Both the position numbers and the translations under genes were made by a program. The notes below the pieces were generated by a model. That model was given only the letters and a program-made list of their open reading frames with translations. It had not been told where the DNA came from and did no database searches. 54,681 nt of DNA from a virus (Duplodnaviria > Caudoviricetes): the IMG/VR virus record IMGVR_UViG_3300028571_000037, positions 1 to 54,681 of that record; one strand, given 5' to 3'. Below, piece by piece: positions 30,449 through 51,175 of the stretch (its first letter is position 1; each line of letters begins with the position of its first letter).

Positions 30449-30476
30449 GAAAGGGGGTTGAAAAACCCCCTTTTTT
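30449..30476. terminator. Bidirectional terminator
   Basis: AAAGGGGGTT-gaaa-AACCCCCTTTTT between convergent genes. Confidence 0.8.
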
Positions 30477-31149
30477 ATGTCCTTTTGATAACTATTTCAT
30501 CGATGATCCCGTAGTCTACAGATTCCTGTGCTGACAACCAAAAATCTCGTAACATATCCTGTTTCACTTGTTCGGGGTCTTTATTACAGAACTTAGCCAA
30601 TAGAGTGATCAATATCTCATTAGTTTTTTCCCATTCGATGAAGTTAATACGAGCGTCTTGAATGTTACCTCCAGCACCACCTGAGGTTTGGTGTAACATA
30701 GTCTTTGAAAACCTGAGTGATGATCGTTTGCCTTTAGTTCCAGCACCCAACAAAACAGATCCCATAGACGCTGCCATACCTGTATTCACAGTTTTGATAT
30801 CACATTTGATGTAATCCATCACATCTACCATAGATAACCCTGATTTCACCGAGCCTCCTGGAGAATCAATATGCATTGTGATATCCAAATTATCCACCGA
30901 GTCGAGATACATAAGTTGAGCTTGGACAACAGTTGACATCGCATCATTTACGGGACCTGCGACCCACAACAAACGTTCTCTCATCAAACGAGAGAAGATG
31001 TCCATTTGTGTGACCCTCATTTCTCGTTCCTCTAAGATATAGGGTGTCATAGAGGCACTGACCTGTTGGTCGTAGTAGTGTAGGTTCATCGAGGACAGAC
31101 CATGTTCACTAATGGCGTACTTCTGAAAATCATTCATATTTGGGTTCAT
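30475..31149 (-). CDS. clpP: ATP-dependent Clp protease proteolytic subunit
   Basis: DIFSRL, IDSPGGSV, GMAASMG (Ser), MLHQ (His), RDFWLSA (Asp), YGIIDEI. Confidence 0.97.
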   Translation of the reverse strand: MNPNMNDFQKYAISEHGLSSMNLHYYDQQVSASMTPYILEEREMRVTQMDIFSRLMRERLLWVAGPVNDAMSTVVQAQLMYLDSVDNLDITMHIDSPGGSVKSGLSMVDVMDYIKCDIKTVNTGMAASMGSVLLGAGTKGKRSSLRFSKTMLHQTSGGAGGNIQDARINFIEWEKTNEILITLLAKFCNKDPEQVKQDMLRDFWLSAQESVDYGIIDEIVIKRT

Positions 31150-31681: not shown

Positions 31682-32173
31682 TTAGACAAATGAAACTTTG
31701 AAATCATCCCAAAGTGTTCCTACATCATTGGATAGAACAAAAGAGAAGATACTTGGTTCATATGGTTTTTGTTGAGGTTTCATACCTGCTTCCTCGGGTG
31801 TACGACTACCTTTTTTTATATTACAAAAATGACAACAGGTCACAAGGTTACTCCAAGTATTCTTACCCCCTCGTGATTTGGGGATTACGTGGTCTATTGT
31901 GAGATTTTTTTTACCACCACAATACACGCATTGGTTATGGTCTCGAGCATATAGACGTTTTCTACTGAGTTTCAGATGAGATGCTATATACCTAACGTAA
32001 CTCAAAAGACGTATTATCAAAGGTCTGGTAAACTCCCCGACGCTTGTCACAATCTTTTTGTTATCCTCACGAAGTACCTCAGCCTTCCCTTTTATTACCA
32101 AGATAAAACCCCTTCGGGTGCTTGTGACATTCAAGGGTGTATAATCTGAATTCAACACAAGTACCTTATCCAT
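31682..32173 (-). CDS. HNH endonuclease
   Basis: VLVLN-Y-PL, RD-CVYCG, TIDHVIPKSRGG, WSNLVTCC-CN. Confidence 0.93.
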   Translation of the reverse strand: MDKVLVLNSDYTPLNVTSTRRGFILVIKGKAEVLREDNKKIVTSVGEFTRPLIIRLLSYVRYIASHLKLSRKRLYARDHNQCVYCGGKKNLTIDHVIPKSRGGKNTWSNLVTCCHFCNIKKGSRTPEEAGMKPQQKPYEPSIFSFVLSNDVGTLWDDFKVSFV

Positions 32174-32425: not shown

Positions 32426-32512
32426 CAAAATCGATATCTTGATATGGTATAATTCTGCCAATCAATATCGATTATTCTTGTTTTTTTAATTTGTTTGGCA
32501 TACATTTGCGCT

Positions 32513-33109
32513 ATGAAAATCTTATTCCTTGATAATGACGGTGTCATCTGTTTAAATAATAATTGGGGTTCTCGTCACAAAAAACAAAAAAAGTGGGGAG
32601 GACGAAAACTATCTATGTCATCGAACGAAATTCCAATTCAATACCGATTTGATAACTTTGATACAAAGGCTGTCAAAGTATTGAACGAAATCTTGGAACA
32701 GACTGGTGCTGAAATCGTTGTTAGTTCAGATTGGAGGTTTCACGCTACTTTGGAAGAATTGGGTGAATACTACCTATCCCAGGGAATTGTAAAAAAACCA
32801 ATTGCTACCACCGATATGTTCAAAGACATTTTCCCCCGAGAATGGTCCGCTTTGAGATTTCGAGCAGATTTGGAATTGGAAAGAAGTATGGAGATCCAAC
32901 ATTGGGTTGATAATCATCCTGAGGTAACACATTGGGTTGCTGTTGATGATTTGAATATGAGTGTTGAGTTCTTGGGACCAAGATTTGTTGCCTCAAATGG
33001 TACAGATGGTCAAGCTGGCCTCAAAAACTTTGTGTTGACACCTTCGGATAATCAAGGTATCAAACAATCGGGAATAAAAGATAAAATACTAAGATACTTA
33101 TTACTATGA
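32513..33109 (+). CDS. HAD-family protein (Swiss-Army-Knife RNA-repair type HAD domain)
   Basis: ILFLDNDGV, IVVSSDWR, R-EI-W, VAVDD. Confidence 0.85.
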   Translation: MKILFLDNDGVICLNNNWGSRHKKQKKWGGRKLSMSSNEIPIQYRFDNFDTKAVKVLNEILEQTGAEIVVSSDWRFHATLEELGEYYLSQGIVKKPIATTDMFKDIFPREWSALRFRADLELERSMEIQHWVDNHPEVTHWVAVDDLNMSVEFLGPRFVASNGTDGQAGLKNFVLTPSDNQGIKQSGIKDKILRYLLL

Positions 33110-33696
33110 TTATTATAGACGACTTTATACAAGATTTAGATTTTTTAGATAAAATCTCTGAGGATAAATCTTTTTGGGAACACGGTTACCGTTGGTATGA
33201 CGGATGGTGGAAATCTCCGATGGAAGATTTGAGACACGAACTGATCTATAAACTGTGGGGGGAAAATTCTCCACATCATAATGTTCAGGTTGCAGGTTTT
33301 GAACATTGGATTGGTGATTTTGGTCCCGATAACAAAGATTCTATGTTGAATATGGATTGGTCTTTGAAACCCCATTTTGATAAGGATGAAACACTTTGGG
33401 GTAAAAACAAAGAAATGGTCGGACCAAAAATTGGTACGGTTTTTTATCCTTGTCGTGAAATTGATGAAATCGAAGGTGGTATGTTATATATTTGGGATAA
33501 ATATGAGCATGCTAACTTGAGTCCTCAAGGTTGGGTAACTAACCTAACTCAAGAACCTCAGATTATAAGTCCAAAATTCAACAGATTAATTATTTTTGAT
33601 GCTTCCAAACTTCACGCAGTATCCTATGTAAAATCGGGACGAAGAAGAGCTATTGCGGTAAACTTATGGGAAAATAAACCAGAAGAATTCAAGTAA
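33106..33696 (+). CDS. 2OG-Fe(II) oxygenase
   Basis: PHFDKD, EGG, FNRLIIFD, HAV, RRAIAVN. Confidence 0.85.
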   Translation: MIIIDDFIQDLDFLDKISEDKSFWEHGYRWYDGWWKSPMEDLRHELIYKLWGENSPHHNVQVAGFEHWIGDFGPDNKDSMLNMDWSLKPHFDKDETLWGKNKEMVGPKIGTVFYPCREIDEIEGGMLYIWDKYEHANLSPQGWVTNLTQEPQIISPKFNRLIIFDASKLHAVSYVKSGRRRAIAVNLWENKPEEFK

Positions 33697-37376: not shown

Positions 37377-37449
37377 CAAAGTAGACCTTCAAAAGGGCCC
37401 TTCCGTATCTGCGTGAACGGCATGTTGGGCCCGGGTCTACCTCTTTCAA

Positions 37450-37523
37450 GCAGAAGTAGCTCAGTTGGTTAGAGCGCAAAACTGTTAATTTTGATGTCCT
37501 TGGTTCGAGTCCAAGAGGGGGAG
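37450..37523 (+). tRNA. tRNA-Asn(GTT) with unpaired acceptor stem (chimeric)
   Basis: D, anticodon (CAAAA-CTGTTAA-TTTTG) and T arms intact, but GCAGAAG cannot pair with AGGGGGA. Confidence 0.75.
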
Positions 37524-37661
37524 CACCGTTACTTGAACTAGCACTAGGAAAGTAACAACCATTGGATGAAGCTAGCATCTCGAATGGTCCTGTAGGTTGA
37601 CAAGTAAAAAGTCCTACCAGGTAGAGTAGGTAATCCGTATTCGGATAAGCTCTACCATTTT

Positions 37662-37734
37662 GCGAAAGTAGCTCAGTTGGTAGAGCATGACCTTACCAAG
37701 GTCAGGGTCGCCGGTTCGAATCCGGTCTTTCGCT
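37662..37734 (+). tRNA. tRNA-Gly with anticodon ACC
   Basis: GCGAAAG/CTTTCGC-T (U73, Gly identity), TGACC-TTACCAA-GGTCA. Confidence 0.92.
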
Positions 37735-37777
37735 CTAATGATAAATATTAATTCAGATATTTATTATTTGTAAAAAT

Positions 37778-37878
37778 AGTCGGGTGGCTGAAATGACAAA
37801 GGCACATTCACTTCGGATGGTGAACACAAGACCTGAAAAGGTTGTTCTCAATTGTAGGTGGGATTCCTACCCCGACTA
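37778..37878 (+). ncRNA. tRNA-like RNA with non-canonical anticodon region and T-loop
   Basis: AGTCGGG/CCCGACT-A acceptor, TGGCTGAA D-arm start, GTAGG-TGGGATT-CCTAC T-arm, long GAAA-capped extra arm. Confidence 0.65.
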
Positions 37879-37885
37879 TCGTATG

Positions 37886-38069
37886 GGTTGGTAGTAATAT
37901 GCGTAGGTCGACGATATGGGAGAGCATATCGCAAGGGTACACACTAAGGATAAGTCGTTTATTTCGGGACTCACGTCCGATTGTATGAAAAGACTCGTCT
38001 CTCTAATGGTGTGTGAAGCCGAATCAGTGAGTAAGGTCAGATTCCTGATAAAGTCGATCACTATCAACC
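37886..38069 (+). ncRNA. Unassigned multi-stem structured RNA (~184 nt)
   Basis: Closing helices GGTTGGTAGT/ACTATCAACC and GGTCGAC/GTCGATC, several internal stems, T run after; GC-richer than flanks. Confidence 0.6.
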
Positions 38070-38170
38070 TTTTTTATTTGTATAATATTTGTTGAACATC
38101 TGTTAAAAAATGTTATCTTTGGATCAAGATTTGTTATTACTGAATGTGCAACTAAAAAACTAATTGAAAG

Positions 38171-38395
38171 ATGAAAGCTATATTAGAATATGATTTACCC
38201 GACGACGAACATGAATATAGGATGGCCATACAAGGTGCTAGCGTTCATTCGGTTCTATGGAAAATGGATCAATACTTACGATCCAAAGTAAAACATTCGC
38301 CAGATTCTACATCTGACGACACTTACAAAGCTTATGTTGAATGTAGAGAAACACTTCATGGGTTTATATCAGACCACAACGTTTCATTTGACTAA
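38171..38395 (+). CDS. Small phage protein
   Basis: MKAILEYDLPDD...DQYLRS; TATCTTTG at 38114. Confidence 0.8.
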   Translation: MKAILEYDLPDDEHEYRMAIQGASVHSVLWKMDQYLRSKVKHSPDSTSDDTYKAYVECRETLHGFISDHNVSFD

Positions 38396-39976: not shown

Positions 39977-40050
39977 AGGCATTTAGCTCAGATGGTTAGA
40001 GCACCTCGCTGATACCGAGAGGGTCGGAGGTTCGAATCCTTCAGGGTGCA
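39977..40050 (+). tRNA. tRNA-Ile(GAT) with mismatched acceptor stem (chimeric)
   Basis: D, anticodon (CTCG-CTGATAC-CGAG) and T arms intact; AGGCATT versus AGGGTGC has three mismatches. Confidence 0.75.
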
Positions 40051-43788: not shown

Positions 43789-44201
43789 TGGTGGAGGTGA
43801 GCGGAGTCGAACCGCTGTCTTGCTCAGTTTACCCATAAAGGACTACATGCTTAGGTCAGGGTTTGTCGTACCCTCCGAAATATTTGATTCCTTTTTTTTC
43901 CATCGTTATCAACAACTATGGGGTGTTCACTCAAAACCGGCAGAACACCAAACATTACCTCCATTCCTTTTAAGATAGAAACCACACCATAAGGACTTCT
44001 GTTTCAAGGTATATGTCCCCCTCGACCCATTGTTATTATAGCCTAAGCTACAGTAACTCCCTCGGTTTGGATTAGACCCAAAGCCTCAAGTGTTGCGAAA
44101 GTATCGCCTTTTGATTTTTGCTTCCATAGATTAAAGTGATAGGAAACATCTCACTGCATGCCCCGTATGACTAACTCTGCCAATCAATACCCGGCACCCC
44201 C
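43789..44201 (-). ncRNA. ssrA: tmRNA (413 nt)
   Basis: 5-prime GGGGGTG pairs with CACCTCC-ACCA (G3:U70); GAC-AGCGG-TTCGACT-CCGCT T arm; GCATG/CATGC helix; tag ORF 44108-44043. Confidence 0.95.
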
Positions 44202-49000: not shown

Positions 49001-50995
49001 TTATTTGATGACAACTTTTTCATCCTTTACTGTGAGAAGGTATCGAGTTCCTTCTTTCACCGTATCAGAAAGAACAGATTCAGATATCAAATCTTCAACT
49101 TCATCTTGAATTGCTCTTTTGATGGGTCGAGCTCCGTAAACTTGGTCAAACCCTACTTTAGAAATGTGTTCAACAATTTTGTCATCAAAAGTAAAAGATA
49201 ACTTAAGATCATTCAAACGTGAGATCAATTTATTCAATTCAATTGATACGATTTTTTTCATAGATTCTTGATCTAAAGAATTAAATACAATTGTTTCATC
49301 AATACGATTTAAAAATTCTGGTGAAAAATAGTTTTTCATTTCCTTCTTGATGATTTCCTTTTTCTGTTCCTCTGATGAATAAGAAGATCCACCGAATCCG
49401 ATTCCTGTACCGAAATCTTGAAGTTTTTTGGCACCAAGATTAGAGGTCATTATTATCAGGGTGTTCTTGAAGTTGATCTTGCGACCCAAAGAATCAGTCA
49501 AATGACCTTCGTCTAACATCTGAAGTAAGGTGTTGAAGATTTCTTTGTTTGCCTTTTCTACCTCATCGAACAGAACAACTGAGTATGGTTTGTTCTTAAC
49601 TTGCTCCGTAAGTTGACCACCTTCATCGTATCCAACATATCCCGGAGGAGCTCCGATCAAACGTGATATTGTATGTTTTTCTTGGTATTCAGACATGTCA
49701 ACACGGATAAGATTGTTGGAAGATCCGAATATTTGTTTTGCCAATTGTTTTGCTAAGTGTGTTTTACCAACTCCAGTGGATCCCAAAAATATAAATGAAC
49801 CGATTGGTTTATTAGGATCTTTAATACCCAAACGATTTCGTCTCATTGCCCGAGCAATTTTGGTTACCGCTTCATTTTGTCCAATCACTTCTTTATTCAA
49901 AAAGTCCTCAAGACCGATAAGGGCGGTTCTATCATCCAAAGACAATTTATTTACGGGTATTTTGGTCATCGATGCTACAACTGTCAGAACAAGATCAGCG
50001 TCAATAGGTTTTCTATTTTCAGATTGTTCTTTTTCGAATTTGATTTTTTCCTTTTCGAGACGTTCCAAAAGTTTCTTCTCCTTATCACGGATCTGAGCCG
50101 CTTGTTCGTAGTCCTGCTTTTTGACGACATCCAATTTATGTTGTTTTAATTCAACCGCCTTTTGTTTCAATACATCGATTGATTCGGGCATCTTAACCTC
50201 TACTTGACTACGAGCACCTACCTCATCCAAAATATCGAACGCTTTGTCGGGAAACTCACGGTCGGTGATATATCGATCTGCAAGATTCACACACATCTCC
50301 AAGATTTCTTGGGTATAAATGACTTTATGGAAGTCTTCGTAACGAGATTTAGATTGTTCTAAGATTAATAGGGTCTCTTCCTTTGATGGTGAGTCGATAC
50401 TGACCTTCTGAAAACGACGTTCGAGAGCTCCGTCTTTTTCAAAGTTGGTACGGTACTCGTTTAGTGTTGTTGCTCCGATACATTGGATCTCACCACGAGC
50501 CAATGCGGGTTTGAATATGTTCGATGCGTCCATAGATCCTGAAGCATTACCAGCTCCTACGATTGTGTGGATCTCGTCAATAAAGACGATAATCTCCTTG
50601 TTTTCAGATAATTCTTCGATAATGACTTTCATACGCTCTTCGAATTGTCCACGATATTTGGTACCAGCAACAATAGAGGTCAGATCCAATAAAACAATTC
50701 GTTTATCACGAAGGTTCCGTGGACAATCTCCCTGAACAATTTTGTTGGCCAAACCCTCGACAATTGCGGTTTTACCACTGCCAGGTTCACCGATTATGAT
50801 GGGATTGTTTTTTTTCCGACGAGATAGGATTTGTGCGATTCGATTGATTTCCATCTCACGACCTATTACAGGATCCAATTTACCTTCAAAGGCCATTTTA
50901 TTTAGGTCTTTAGAGAAATTATCCAATACTGGTGTTCCACTTTGTTTTTGACGGGATTTAGATCCTTTGTCATTTTCGTCCATAGATTCGATCAT
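49001..50995 (-). CDS. clpC: Clp ATPase (ClpC-like, two AAA+ modules, UVR middle domain, no N-domain)
   Basis: [34 protein letters not shown] pore loop, [14 protein letters not shown] loop (GIGFG). Confidence 0.93.
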
Positions 50996-51175
50996 ATTAT
51001 AAGTTTTAGAATTATACCCCAAATATACAATTATTTTTCCAAATACCTAATACTGACATTTTGACATACAGGTTTTTTATCGGCTTGACAAAATGTCATA
51101 TAAAATATATATTTATGTATTGGCACATTATTTATGGATAATTTACCAAAATAAATTATAAAATCAAAATTAACT

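Follow-up and report, generated by a model that had tools for sequence, protein, structure and literature searches.

A conserved, covarying RNA family, named in no database, occupies slots within the tRNA arrays of viral contigs

The DNA considered here (the window, 54,681 nt) is an IMG/VR viral record (IMGVR_UViG_3300028571_000037), so the 184-nt element at 37886-38069 on its + strand is phage-borne. Letters and coordinates agree with those of an earlier note on this DNA, which had described the element as an unassigned multi-helix RNA ending an RNA island. It is preceded on the + strand by a 100-nt tRNA-like RNA (37779-37878) and a 7-nt spacer (together 37779-37885), which stand in place of a flanking tRNA and lie outside the family described below, and it is followed by the predicted T run (38070-38075). 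The element does end the island locally, but further tRNAs are found from 39035 on. ARAGORN misses odd tRNAs in this window. The + strand of the element has a folding energy of -59.0 kcal/mol, whereas its shuffles average -44.4 (sd 3.96; z -3.68) and none of 200 folds as well; for the - strand the value is -43.5 kcal/mol (z -2.23), equalled by 5 of 200 shuffles. The fold comprises a long closing helix (P1), an asymmetric loop, a second helix (P2) and a junction carrying the hairpin P3, P4 (P4a and P4b) and a variable P5. About 55 nt are nearly invariant among relatives, mostly at the junction, including GCGUAG, the GGAGAG loop, CGCAAGGGUACACAC, CUCUCUAAUGGUGUGUGAAG and GAUUCCUGAUAAAG.

Comparison with Rfam 15 (4,227 models, including ROOL, GOLLD, raiA, ribozymes, riboswitches, tRNA, tmRNA, RNase P, 6S, SRP and YrlA) gave no match on 37886-38069 when the whole window was searched at gathering thresholds, and none on the element when 37380-38250 was searched with permissive filters at E<=10, in keeping with the earlier statement that it fits no known RNA family. 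Family members in three other loci (L123, L020 and L143) were likewise without a match at E<=5, while a fourth (L154) returned RsaF at 20.6 (threshold 60 bits) and rli42 at 17.8 (threshold 80 bits), which is noise. A tRNA or tRNA-like identity was rejected, as ARAGORN and Rfam call the neighbours and not the element, and the fold supported by covariation is not a cloverleaf. A literature search found no description of the family, and two conserved 13-14-mers occur solely in unrelated papers. The closest published material is a set of 8,495 covariation-supported, unnamed candidate structured RNAs from IMG/VR, some of them tRNA-like (Fremin et al., 2023; PMC10690425), which resembles the family in data source and in kind of object. 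The portions of that text compared here contain no motif like the family's; since the comparison was by description, the family may overlap with the 8,495 candidates (PMC10690425). Set apart in this manner, by text descriptions, from the candidates of Fremin et al. (PMC10690425), the family appears to be undescribed, and it is widespread.

Homologues were sought with motif scans and with a covariance model (R1) built from 12 seed sequences, the window among them. The family so defined consists of P1, P2, P3 with its GGAGAG loop, P4 and the junction blocks CGCAAGGGUACACA and GAUUCCUGAUAAA. On the window, R1 scores 146.4 bits (E 5e-33) over the whole model length, partly by construction because the window is a seed sequence. 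All 100 IMG/VR sources searched match, at 68-146 bits for full-length matches (three are cut by locus ends); the homologues amount to 75 distinct sequences, and the 98 non-seed loci score 68-145 bits at full length. Of the 119 metagenome loci, the first 100 were searched with R1 (L261-L279 being left out), and 85 of these match, as do four of nine pattern hits in 185,579 species genomes. Members are 125-187 nt long and abundant in freshwater, marine and gut metagenomes, with relatives on viral contigs of up to 508 kb. A motif scan lengthened by one N recovered 14 real members with a 7-nt P3 strand alongside 8 chance hits, and the scan without this extra N recovered 3 real members among 7 hits. 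Because all homologues were retrieved through invariant motifs, the sample leaves out divergent members and part of the invariance comes from the search itself; the invariance of each block was checked in the set retrieved by the other pattern. The expectation that relatives would be found in numbers and that their pairs would covary was borne out, and together with the Rfam result these covarying relatives on viral contigs support the element's proposed status as a candidate new class of phage noncoding RNA.

Outside these sets the family is seldom met. Neither blastn of 37740-38110 against 50,697 phage records nor a search of the same number of deposited phage genomes with a typical member (E<=10) returned a copy; the latter gave short hits in 15 records, which are attributed to chance because they cover at most 23% of the query, lie inside protein genes and have E>=0.5. 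An exact 22-mer of the window has no match in IMG/VR. With the flanking proteins as anchors, the only real relative recovered was L002/G001, and 11 loci encoding homologues of the 74-aa downstream protein contain neither tRNAs nor the element. Pattern hits in Methanocorpusculum, Burkholderiales, Flavihumibacter and one Bacteroidales MAG fall in coding sequence with no model hit and were discarded as chance. In a survey of Bacteroidales, one of 151 genomes matched, namely the centre genome itself; the family is thus rare in the cells searched. Its carriers are uncultivated phages whose hosts are probably Bacteroidota, the host assignment being based on the four genome hits (three of them MAG contigs, possibly mis-binned phage DNA) and one T9SS domain.

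Covariation was computed on the 75 distinct homologues in an alignment fitted to R1, with shuffles and slid helices as controls. Support was obtained for P1, P2, P3 and P4b: of the 32 pairs, 26 have changed in both partners. The share of paired cells is 94.2%, as compared with 73.8% in shuffles and 33-50% in the slid controls, and the covariation score of 0.543 (vs 0.179) was reached by none of 500 shuffles. RNAalifold, run independently, recovers P1, P2 and the core of P3. G-U pairs are common in the helices of the family, in keeping with the + strand; for example, P2 pair 24-201 is GC in 38 sequences and GU in 28. Frames of 59 aa (+ strand) and 63 aa (- strand) overlap the element, yet homologue lengths differ by hairpin-sized indels and the changes are compensatory in pairs, which is not a coding pattern and upholds the earlier judgement that there is no credible open reading frame. 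Thus, with a fold that outdoes its shuffles and homologues that are conserved and covarying, the 184-nt stretch is a real, strongly conserved folded RNA whose family is named in no database.

Five of the six helices that the earlier note had proposed are kept in relatives. Both closing helices stand in full: P1 (GGUUGGUAGU, 37886-37895, paired with ACUAUCAACC, 38060-38069) changes on both sides in 10 of 10 pairs with 95.3% of cells paired, and P2 (GGUCGAC, 37906-37912, paired with GUCGAUC, 38053-38059; the two 3' strands together span 38053-38069) does so in 7 of 7 pairs with 97.8% of cells paired and differs from its counterpart in G001 by one G-C to A-U swap. Between their 5' strands lies the asymmetric internal loop AAUAUGCGUA (37896-37905), which contains the nearly invariant GCGUAG. 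The hairpin P3 (GAUAUG-GGAGAG-CAUAUC, 37913-37930) corresponds to the proposed CGATATG/CATATCG stem; covariation extends to all six pairs in the model, with 82% of cells paired, and is clean in the inner four (e.g., pair 36-43: UA 48, CG 13, GC 11), while the outermost C-G pair of the proposed stem competes with P2 and a pseudoknot. Its loop, GGAGAG (37919-37924), is invariant as read in the set retrieved via the 3' pattern only. J3/4 (CGCAAGGGU, 37930-37938) includes the invariant junction strand AAGGGU and leads into P4a (ACACACU, 37939-37945, paired with GGUGUGU, 38008-38014), the CACACTA/TGGTGTG stem of the earlier note; here 97.9% of cells are paired, and the helix is nearly invariant in relatives, with a single C-G to U-A swap, in L037. 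The P4 internal loop AAGGAUA, P4b and a distal extension occupy 37946-37998. P4b (AGUC, 37953-37956, with GACU, 37992-37995) covaries at both pairs (GC 34/AU 23 and GC 53/AU 3/UA 1), is GNRA-capped in mid-sized members and is absent from the shortest. The distal extension (37957-37991) is lineage-specific and includes the proposed UCGG.AC/GUCCGA stem, which is kept in an 87%-identical relative with one-sided changes only and is absent from most family members.

The 3' half of the junction begins with a CUCUCU block (37999-38004), followed by the 3' strand of P4a and J4/5 (GAAG; together 38008-38018), which are nearly invariant in the set retrieved via the 5' pattern only. P5 (38019-38039) is a variable insert of 9-33 nt in the family (58 distinct inserts), usually a short hairpin and often GNRA-capped. 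J5/2 (GAUUCCUGAUAAA, 38040-38052) is an invariant junction strand outside the search pattern: it is identical in 54 of 66 distinct metagenome sequences that reach it in full, and 11 of the remaining 12 differ by one or two letters. The sixth proposed helix, ATCAG/CTGAT, is not supported: its CUGAU strand falls within the invariant block GAUUCCUGAUAAAG, the segment containing the proposed partner varies in length, and one of the pairs is broken in the 87%-identical relative.

The fold also contains a pseudoknot, PK1, and a candidate second one, PK2. PK1 joins GCG of the P1/P2 loop (37901-37903) to CGC of J3/4 (37930-37932) in three pairs, two of which covary: pair 19-53 is GC 62, GU 5, AU 3 and other 3; pair 20-52 is CG 63, UA 5, AU 3 and other 2; and pair 21-51 is GC 72 and other 1. 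In the metagenome set, four distinct variants carry ACG opposite the pattern-fixed CGC, giving an A.C mismatch. PK2, a putative loop-loop pairing of GGAGAG in P3 with the CUCUCU block as its candidate 3' strand, has 98.0% of cells paired, with one-sided variation at four of six pairs and both-sided change in two cells; as the variation is mostly one-sided, it is a weak candidate. RNAalifold offers an alternative in which CUCU pairs with AGGG of J3/4. The candidate partners of this AGGG are UCCU (38043-38046) or CUCU (37999-38004), and all of the columns concerned are invariant; a further candidate pairing, AGGA with UCCU, likewise falls on invariant columns.

The genomic position of the family is as distinctive as its fold. 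Its genes almost always belong to tRNA arrays and share the orientation of the tRNAs, mostly sitting flush with one on each side: P1 usually begins 0-2 nt behind the end of the upstream tRNA, and 3-7 nt separate the element from the tRNA that follows (borders from ARAGORN and the model are accurate to 1-2 nt only). Among distinct contexts from IMG/VR, an upstream tRNA lies within 5 nt in 55 of 85 (at 0-1 nt in 44 of 85), the next tRNA downstream is at most 10 nt away in 65 of 88 (mostly 4-5 nt), and a close tRNA on one side or the other in 72 of 84; the corresponding metagenome counts are 39/79, 58/71 and 60/69. Many loci lack a flanking tRNA on one side, and 12 of 84 contexts (IMG/VR) and 9 of 69 (metagenomes) have none on either side. 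Gaps between tRNAs in the same arrays have medians of 54-63 nt, and about 40% are at most 10 nt. Neighbouring tRNAs share the strand of the element in 1024 of 1026 and 781 of 783 cases. The tRNA-like RNA upstream in the window, called a tRNA by neither ARAGORN nor Rfam, is kept together with the element in G001 and constitutes a family of its own, elsewhere mostly stand-alone. This separate family, the slot in tRNA arrays and the pseudoknots had not figured in the earlier note.

The flush position between tRNAs suggests excision by tRNA-processing enzymes, and the element is probably co-transcribed with the tRNAs and released by the enzymes that mature its neighbours. An RNase Z-type cut after the discriminator of the upstream tRNA would generate the 5' end, RNase P acting at the next tRNA would leave a 3-7-nt tail at the 3' end, and P1 would then shield both ends. 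In the window, the tRNA-like RNA would take the upstream role and the U6 run (38070-38075), possibly the end of the transcription unit and a feature of this lineage only, would end the unit. A U run follows P1 in the window, G001 and L131; most relatives lack it and have a tRNA next instead. A terminator scan called no + strand terminator at 38069, the U run there is preceded by a stem enclosing a domain of 164 nt, and assignment as an intrinsic terminator (a short G+C-rich hairpin and U run) was rejected. In four of four metatranscriptome runs (four studies), picked for containing words of this stretch, short contigs of 198-257 nt lie almost wholly within 37773-38038; such contigs do not mark RNA ends, and because RNA libraries can contain DNA they are a hint of expression only. 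Positions 37741-37771 and 38082-38300 are not covered in these runs, which does not imply absence of transcript. Rare stand-alone copies, followed by a hairpin and a T run, occur in two Bacteroidales genomes, that of Dysgonomonas with a TAnnTTTG-like box upstream, and one bacterial copy has HicAB on one side and the PADLOC candidate PDC-M29 on the other, a neighbourhood of defence type.

Neighbouring protein genes were surveyed by clustering 838 ORFs from 110 sources, all of which contain the RNA, so that arrays without it do not enter the comparison. The commonest family near the arrays is RNaseH_like (PF04308; 29 of 110 sources), followed by HNH (20), HAD_SAK_2 (15, the window included), a family without a Pfam match (15) and Metallophos (11). 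No protein family occurs in more than 29 of the 110 sources, and the set shows association neither way. RNA-repair-type genes (HAD_SAK_2 and Metallophos) are found near some arrays.

Several known systems offer points of comparison. The species 1 and 2 RNAs of phage T4 (rnaC and rnaD) are stable RNAs without known function that are matured with tRNA precursors. Like the element, they are small non-tRNA RNAs flush with a tRNA cluster on the same strand: in the T4 record (AF158101), rnaD begins 1 nt after tRNA-Arg and rnaC 6 nt after rnaD. With filters off, R1 run on the T4 tRNA region leaves rnaC without a match and reaches no more than 4.1 bits (a local match, E 9.6) within rnaD, which indicates no homology; moreover, rnaC has a canonical T-arm sequence, looks tRNA-like and so has more in common with the tRNA-like RNA upstream in the window than with the 184-nt element, and T4 infects Enterobacteria whereas the hosts of the family are probably Bacteroidota. 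The likeness is therefore one of context (flush, same strand, phage tRNA cluster) and not of membership. ROOL, at about 580 nt, and GOLLD are many times larger than the family RNA, and the element has no Rfam match to either. Both are described, in the portions of the source used here, as structured phage or prophage RNAs "often near tRNA islands", pseudoknotted and with no known function or protein partner (PMC12286853), in which respects, as structured phage RNAs near tRNAs with pseudoknots, they resemble the family. The same portions report that GOLLD members often exceed 800 nt and that both RNAs form 8- to 14-mer cages by cryo-EM (PMC12286853). The geometry of the family, including the tRNA-like element directly upstream in the window, is also that of tRNA punctuation. 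In mitochondrial transcripts and MALAT1-mascRNA, RNase P and RNase Z cuts at tRNA-like structures set the ends of non-tRNA RNAs; these cases are eukaryotic or organellar and concern mRNAs or lncRNAs, whereas processing in the phage family is deduced from gene position. Finally, YrlA (RF02553), a structured bacterial Y RNA-like RNA with a tRNA-like module, is linked to RNA repair and quality control, and the RNA-repair-type genes near some of the family's arrays recall it; YrlA has no match on the element, and weak YrlA hits in the loci fall on tRNAs.

As to function, the prevailing view of phage tRNA arrays is that they mainly supply tRNAs resistant to the anticodon nucleases of the host. Taken overall, the explanation we lean towards is an undescribed phage RNA family that occupies a slot in tRNA arrays, is excised and acts in trans. 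More tentatively, the mature RNA could act in trans as a folded object and not by antisense pairing. Its invariant junction might bind a conserved macromolecule that takes part in tRNA metabolism or in host defence directed at tRNAs, and so serve as a decoy, inhibitor or scaffold, a function that would agree with the part in counter-defence now proposed for these arrays; the choice of binding partner is a guess. Mimicry of, or antisense pairing with, rRNA was rejected, as the element has three shared or complementary 9-mers with Dysgonomonas 16S and 23S rRNA against 4.7 in shuffles (235 of 300 as high). A new RNA class with an activity of its own, such as a ribozyme acting on tRNAs or tRNA ends, or a high-affinity trap for a host defence nuclease or an immune signalling nucleotide, is rather unlikely; if it were so, Bacteroidota phages would load such an RNA into their arrays and host tRNA enzymes would deliver it in tRNA-like amounts.

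The first form of such an activity, a new ribozyme that either cleaves itself at its own border, thereby maturing the abutting tRNA, or cleaves, ligates or repairs tRNAs, is quite improbable. A compact pseudoknotted fold with about 55 near-invariant junction and loop nucleotides and freely covarying helices is the pattern of a ribozyme core, the 5' end abuts the upstream tRNA as a cut at the element's own 5' edge would have it (the 44 of 85 IMG/VR contexts at 0-1 nt), and end-healing-type enzymes (HAD_SAK_2, Metallophos) lie close by in some loci. However, none of the known ribozyme models matches, cuts by the host's RNase P and RNase Z would be enough to account for the ends, the stand-alone copies in bacteria lack a tRNA that could be matured, and a 2',3'-cyclic phosphate left on the upstream tRNA would hinder CCA addition. 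HDV-like ribozymes have a nested double pseudoknot in which the 3' strand of P1 is internal, unlike the nested P1 seen here, which joins the two termini of the element; membership among HDV-like or hatchet-type 5'-edge ribozymes was rejected on this ground and for want of an Rfam match. Equally doubtful is an aptamer-like sponge, an abundant RNA expressed from a tRNA promoter that sequesters a small molecule, for example a nucleotide signal of immunity or stress. Riboswitch aptamers similarly combine an invariant multi-strand junction with peripheral hairpins that vary, P1 closes the ends with no expression platform, and the copy between HicAB and PDC-M29 would fit, but that neighbourhood is a single case, gene context suggests no ligand, no riboswitch family matches, and we know of no natural RNA sponge for small molecules.

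It is very unlikely that the element is only a cis element of the array (a terminator, processing spacer or precursor stabiliser) with no function as a free RNA: its place between tRNAs would suit a spacer and the U run in the window, G001 and L131 a terminator, but neither needs 55 invariant nucleotides, a pseudoknot or a covarying three-way junction, most loci have a tRNA 3-7 nt downstream and no U run, and stand-alone copies have a separate terminator while none is called at 38069. A decayed or expanded tRNA, another remnant kept by linkage (an intron fragment or mobile-element RNA) or a small coding gene can hardly be credited, despite the tRNA slots and the overlapping 59- and 63-aa frames, given that the search at E<=10 returned neither a tRNA nor an intron nor any other match, ARAGORN is silent, selection acts on pairs and not codons with lengths varying from 125 to 187 nt via hairpin-sized indels, and the RNA stays conserved on contigs whose most widespread protein family reaches 29 of 110 sources.

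The family bears on what phage tRNA arrays contain. In a broad set of uncultivated phages, these arrays hold at least one non-tRNA passenger, and there are three in this window. The passenger described here has an invariant pseudoknotted core of the kind seen in ribozymes and aptamers, and to our knowledge orphan RNAs with such conservation are rare; ROOL, GOLLD, OLE and raiA are earlier orphan RNAs that repaid study. As the family is small, with its shortest members measuring 127 nt, abundant and easily synthesised, tests of structure, ligand, partner and cleavage are feasible. The family thereby reopens a 50-year-old question, namely why stable non-tRNA RNAs, such as T4 species 1 and 2, reside in phage tRNA clusters.

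In the window, the 184-nt element (37886-38069, + strand) is the last RNA of a local cluster that it closes, as the earlier note had described, and six T follow it directly. The cluster runs from tRNA-Arg and tRNA-Met through a tRNA matched by Rfam only (37457-37515, +), a second unassigned element of about 132 nt (~37528-37659, +), a tRNA-Gly called by ARAGORN (37662-37735, +) and a 100-nt tRNA-like RNA (37779-37878, +), which a 7-nt spacer separates from the 184-nt element. The + strand, which the note had favoured, folds at -59.0 kcal/mol (z -3.68; none of 200 shuffles equally good), compared with a weaker fold on the - strand (z -2.23).

Neither a direct blastn against deposited phage genomes nor a search with an exact 22-mer gave a match, and a close relative, G001 (in locus L002), was reached via a flanking protein. 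The two share a ~300-nt unit of tRNA-like RNA plus element at 87% identity, a likeness that does not extend into the flanks; among the changes within the unit is a G-C to A-U swap in P2, the inner closing helix. Loop and junction motif scans of IMG/VR at two spacer settings yielded 14 and 3 further members, which have the 184-nt element in common and not the tRNA-like RNA, and a 3'-half pattern yielded 115 stretches. R1, a covariance model built from 12 sequences with the structure set by hand, matched once in every one of the 100 IMG/VR sources searched, which comprised the window, L040 and 98 new loci and gave 75 distinct element sequences. Of at least 119 metagenome stretches retrieved by a 5'-half pattern, the first 100 were searched with R1 and 85 matched; of 9 pattern hits from a scan of 185,579 species genomes, 4 matched. 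Members are 125-187 nt long; no copy was found in 50,697 deposited phage records, and the sole match among 151 Bacteroidales genomes was the centre genome.

These homologues bear out most of the proposed fold. In the IMG/VR alignment, which was fitted to R1 and is thus biased toward the modelled structure, 94.2% of cells are paired, compared with 73.8% after shuffling of columns and 33-50% with partners slid by 1-3 columns; two-sided changes occur in 26 of 32 pairs, and the covariation score (0.543 vs 0.179) was equalled in 0 of 500 shuffles. RNAalifold, run independently on the metagenome set, recovered P1 (the outer closing helix), P2 and the core of P3, and this result and the slid controls speak against an artefact of the model-fitted alignment. 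All pairs covary in P1 (10/10), P2 (7/7), P3 (6/6, the two outer ones poorly paired) and P4b (2/2), and P4a (ACACACU/GGUGUGU) is nearly invariant. Five of the six helices named in the earlier note hold in relatives; ATCAG/CTGAT does not. The hairpins P4b and P5 differ between members or are absent from some, frequently bearing a GNRA cap, and a 35-nt extension of P4b is restricted to the window's lineage.

A 3-bp pseudoknot, PK1, joins GCG in the P1/P2 loop to CGC in J3/4, the junction between P3 and P4 (middle pair: CG 63, UA 5, AU 3, other 2; outer pair: GC 62, GU 5, AU 3, other 3), and in the metagenome set four ACG variants lie opposite a C fixed by the search pattern. A candidate second pseudoknot, between GGAGAG of the P3 loop and CUCUCU of the P4 internal loop, is 98% paired with a two-sided change in only two cells; RNAalifold offers CUCU with AGGG as an alternative. 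The near-invariant blocks are GCGUAG, GGAGAG, CGCAAGGGUACACA, CUCUCUAAUGGUGUGUGAAG and GAUUCCUGAUAAAG, the invariance of each being verified in the set retrieved via the opposite half of the molecule.

ARAGORN was run on every locus, giving 89 distinct IMG/VR and 81 metagenome contexts. In IMG/VR, 1024 of 1026 tRNAs share the element's strand, and 80/84 contexts have a tRNA within 1 kb; the upstream tRNA ends ≤5 nt away in 55/85 (0 nt in 28, 1 nt in 16), the downstream tRNA starts ≤10 nt away in 65/88 (4 or 5 nt in 48), and both neighbours are close in 44/84 and at least one in 72/84. The metagenome values are similarly 39/79 upstream, 58/71 downstream, 30/69 for both, 60/69 for either and 68/69 within 1 kb. 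Since the median gap between tRNAs in the same arrays is 54-63 nt, the element is packed tighter than the tRNAs themselves, and the near-flush upstream gap leaves no room for an encoded CCA after the upstream tRNA. Past P1, the loci share no conserved 3' tail. The element is a conserved RNA gene, folded with a pseudoknot, which lies on the tRNA strand and takes up a slot in tRNA arrays. The G001 array holds another non-tRNA passenger, a near-threshold freshwater-1 RNA (L002 6877-6939; 69.1 vs 72 bits, E 8e-15).

The tRNA-like RNA has an acceptor-type stem (GUCGGG/CCCGAC), a T-arm with a non-canonical loop (GUAGG-UGGGAUU-CCUAC) and two covarying inner hairpins (CAUUC/GGAUG and GAGAACA/UGUUCUC); it lacks a conserved anticodon and draws no call from ARAGORN or Rfam. 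It is a family of its own, and it occurs alone, followed by a T run, in loci L158, L114/L141 and L160. At the end of locus L159, a normal tRNA has the tRNA-like RNA's 3' half fused behind it, and the start of the main RNA comes next, a chimera that suggests recombination within arrays. The ~37528-37659 element, flanked by tRNAs on both sides, is 80-88% identical in L188, L027, L024/L026/L034 and L117, where the main RNA also lies one tRNA beyond it, and is covered by one RNA-library contig (X19 record 24). The tRNA-Gly has anticodon ACC per ARAGORN, and an A at position 34 of this tRNA is unusual in bacteria. Two Rfam tRNAs, 37457-37515 (+) and 39979-40050 (+), score 48.0 and 48.2 bits and were missed by ARAGORN; the acceptor stem of the former is odd because its match spans model positions 8-63 only.

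The stretch also occurs in DNA runs, sampled from lake water and sediment. Each of four metatranscriptome runs, drawn from four studies and chosen for containing words of the stretch, includes a short contig confined almost wholly to the tRNA-like RNA and element (37840-38020, 37773-38021, 37847-37998 and 37787-38038; 87-93% identity, G001-type variants); the spacer 37741-37771 and the downstream gene are not covered by any of the four. These contigs, which show no RNA ends and come from libraries that may carry DNA, hint at a stable RNA.

Two Bacteroidales genomes, Dysgonomonas sp. 521 and a Tannerella MAG, have copies that stand alone, each with a separate hairpin and T run behind it, at loci L146 (6714-6881, -) and L153 (1501-1665, +). 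The Dysgonomonas copy lies downstream of a DUF5053 gene and is itself preceded by a TAnnTTTG-like box, and the Tannerella copy lies between a HicA/HicB pair and the PADLOC candidate system PDC-M29 (PDC-M29A/B), with an AriA-like ATPase. The remaining two genome hits come from a Schleiferiaceae and a Crocinitomicaceae MAG; tRNA-like sequence flanks both, and the contigs may belong to phages.

The window record itself (54,681 nt, viral in IMG/VR, estimated completeness 23%) carries 13 Rfam tRNA matches, 12 ARAGORN tRNAs and one tmRNA, and one of its proteins has a T9SS sorting domain, which points to Bacteroidota as host. The full-length tmRNA (43789-44201, -; 73.1 bits), a ClpP protease (30475-31149, -) and a ClpB/ClpA-type double AAA ATPase (49001-51022, -) together make up a set for translation rescue and proteolysis. 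Genes for a HAD_SAK_2 protein (32495-33109, +; E 1e-22), a 2OG-Fe(II) oxygenase (33106-33696, +) and an HNH endonuclease (31682-32173, -) lie upstream of the RNA cluster, some 5 kb away. HAD_SAK_2 is the HAD domain found in RNA-repair proteins of the 'Swiss Army Knife' type, and it lies near the element RNA in 15 of 110 sources.

Rfam 15 gave no match to the element, whether gathering thresholds or permissive filters at E≤10 were applied, and no description was found in literature searches that included motif words. By context, the nearest known kind are ROOL and GOLLD, RNAs of unknown function that phages carry near tRNA islands (PMC12286853); they are unrelated to the element. By position, the nearest are the T4 species 1 and 2 RNAs (rnaC, rnaD), which sit flush beside tRNA-Arg in the same arrangement but are unrelated to the family; species 1 resembles the window's tRNA-like RNA in being tRNA-like. 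We rate the element, proposed in the earlier note as a candidate phage ncRNA class, as a new RNA class, one that may figure among the unnamed candidates of PMC10690425.

The element is probably co-transcribed with the tRNAs and released when the RNAs next to it are cut to maturity. P1 would close off the released RNA at either end; in the window, the tRNA-like RNA would provide the upstream cut site and U6 would end the unit. As to what the free RNA does, a ribozyme and a small-molecule sponge are both improbable, a purely cis role is more doubtful still, and a coding gene or tRNA decay is very unlikely. Some weight for action through the invariant junction comes from three observations: the conserved strands are consumed inside the fold, complementarity to host rRNA shows no excess, and the RNA is also found outside arrays. 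No partner gene was found travelling with it, which speaks against a firm claim. Tentatively, the free RNA may use this junction to bind a conserved macromolecule involved in tRNA metabolism or in tRNA-directed defence.
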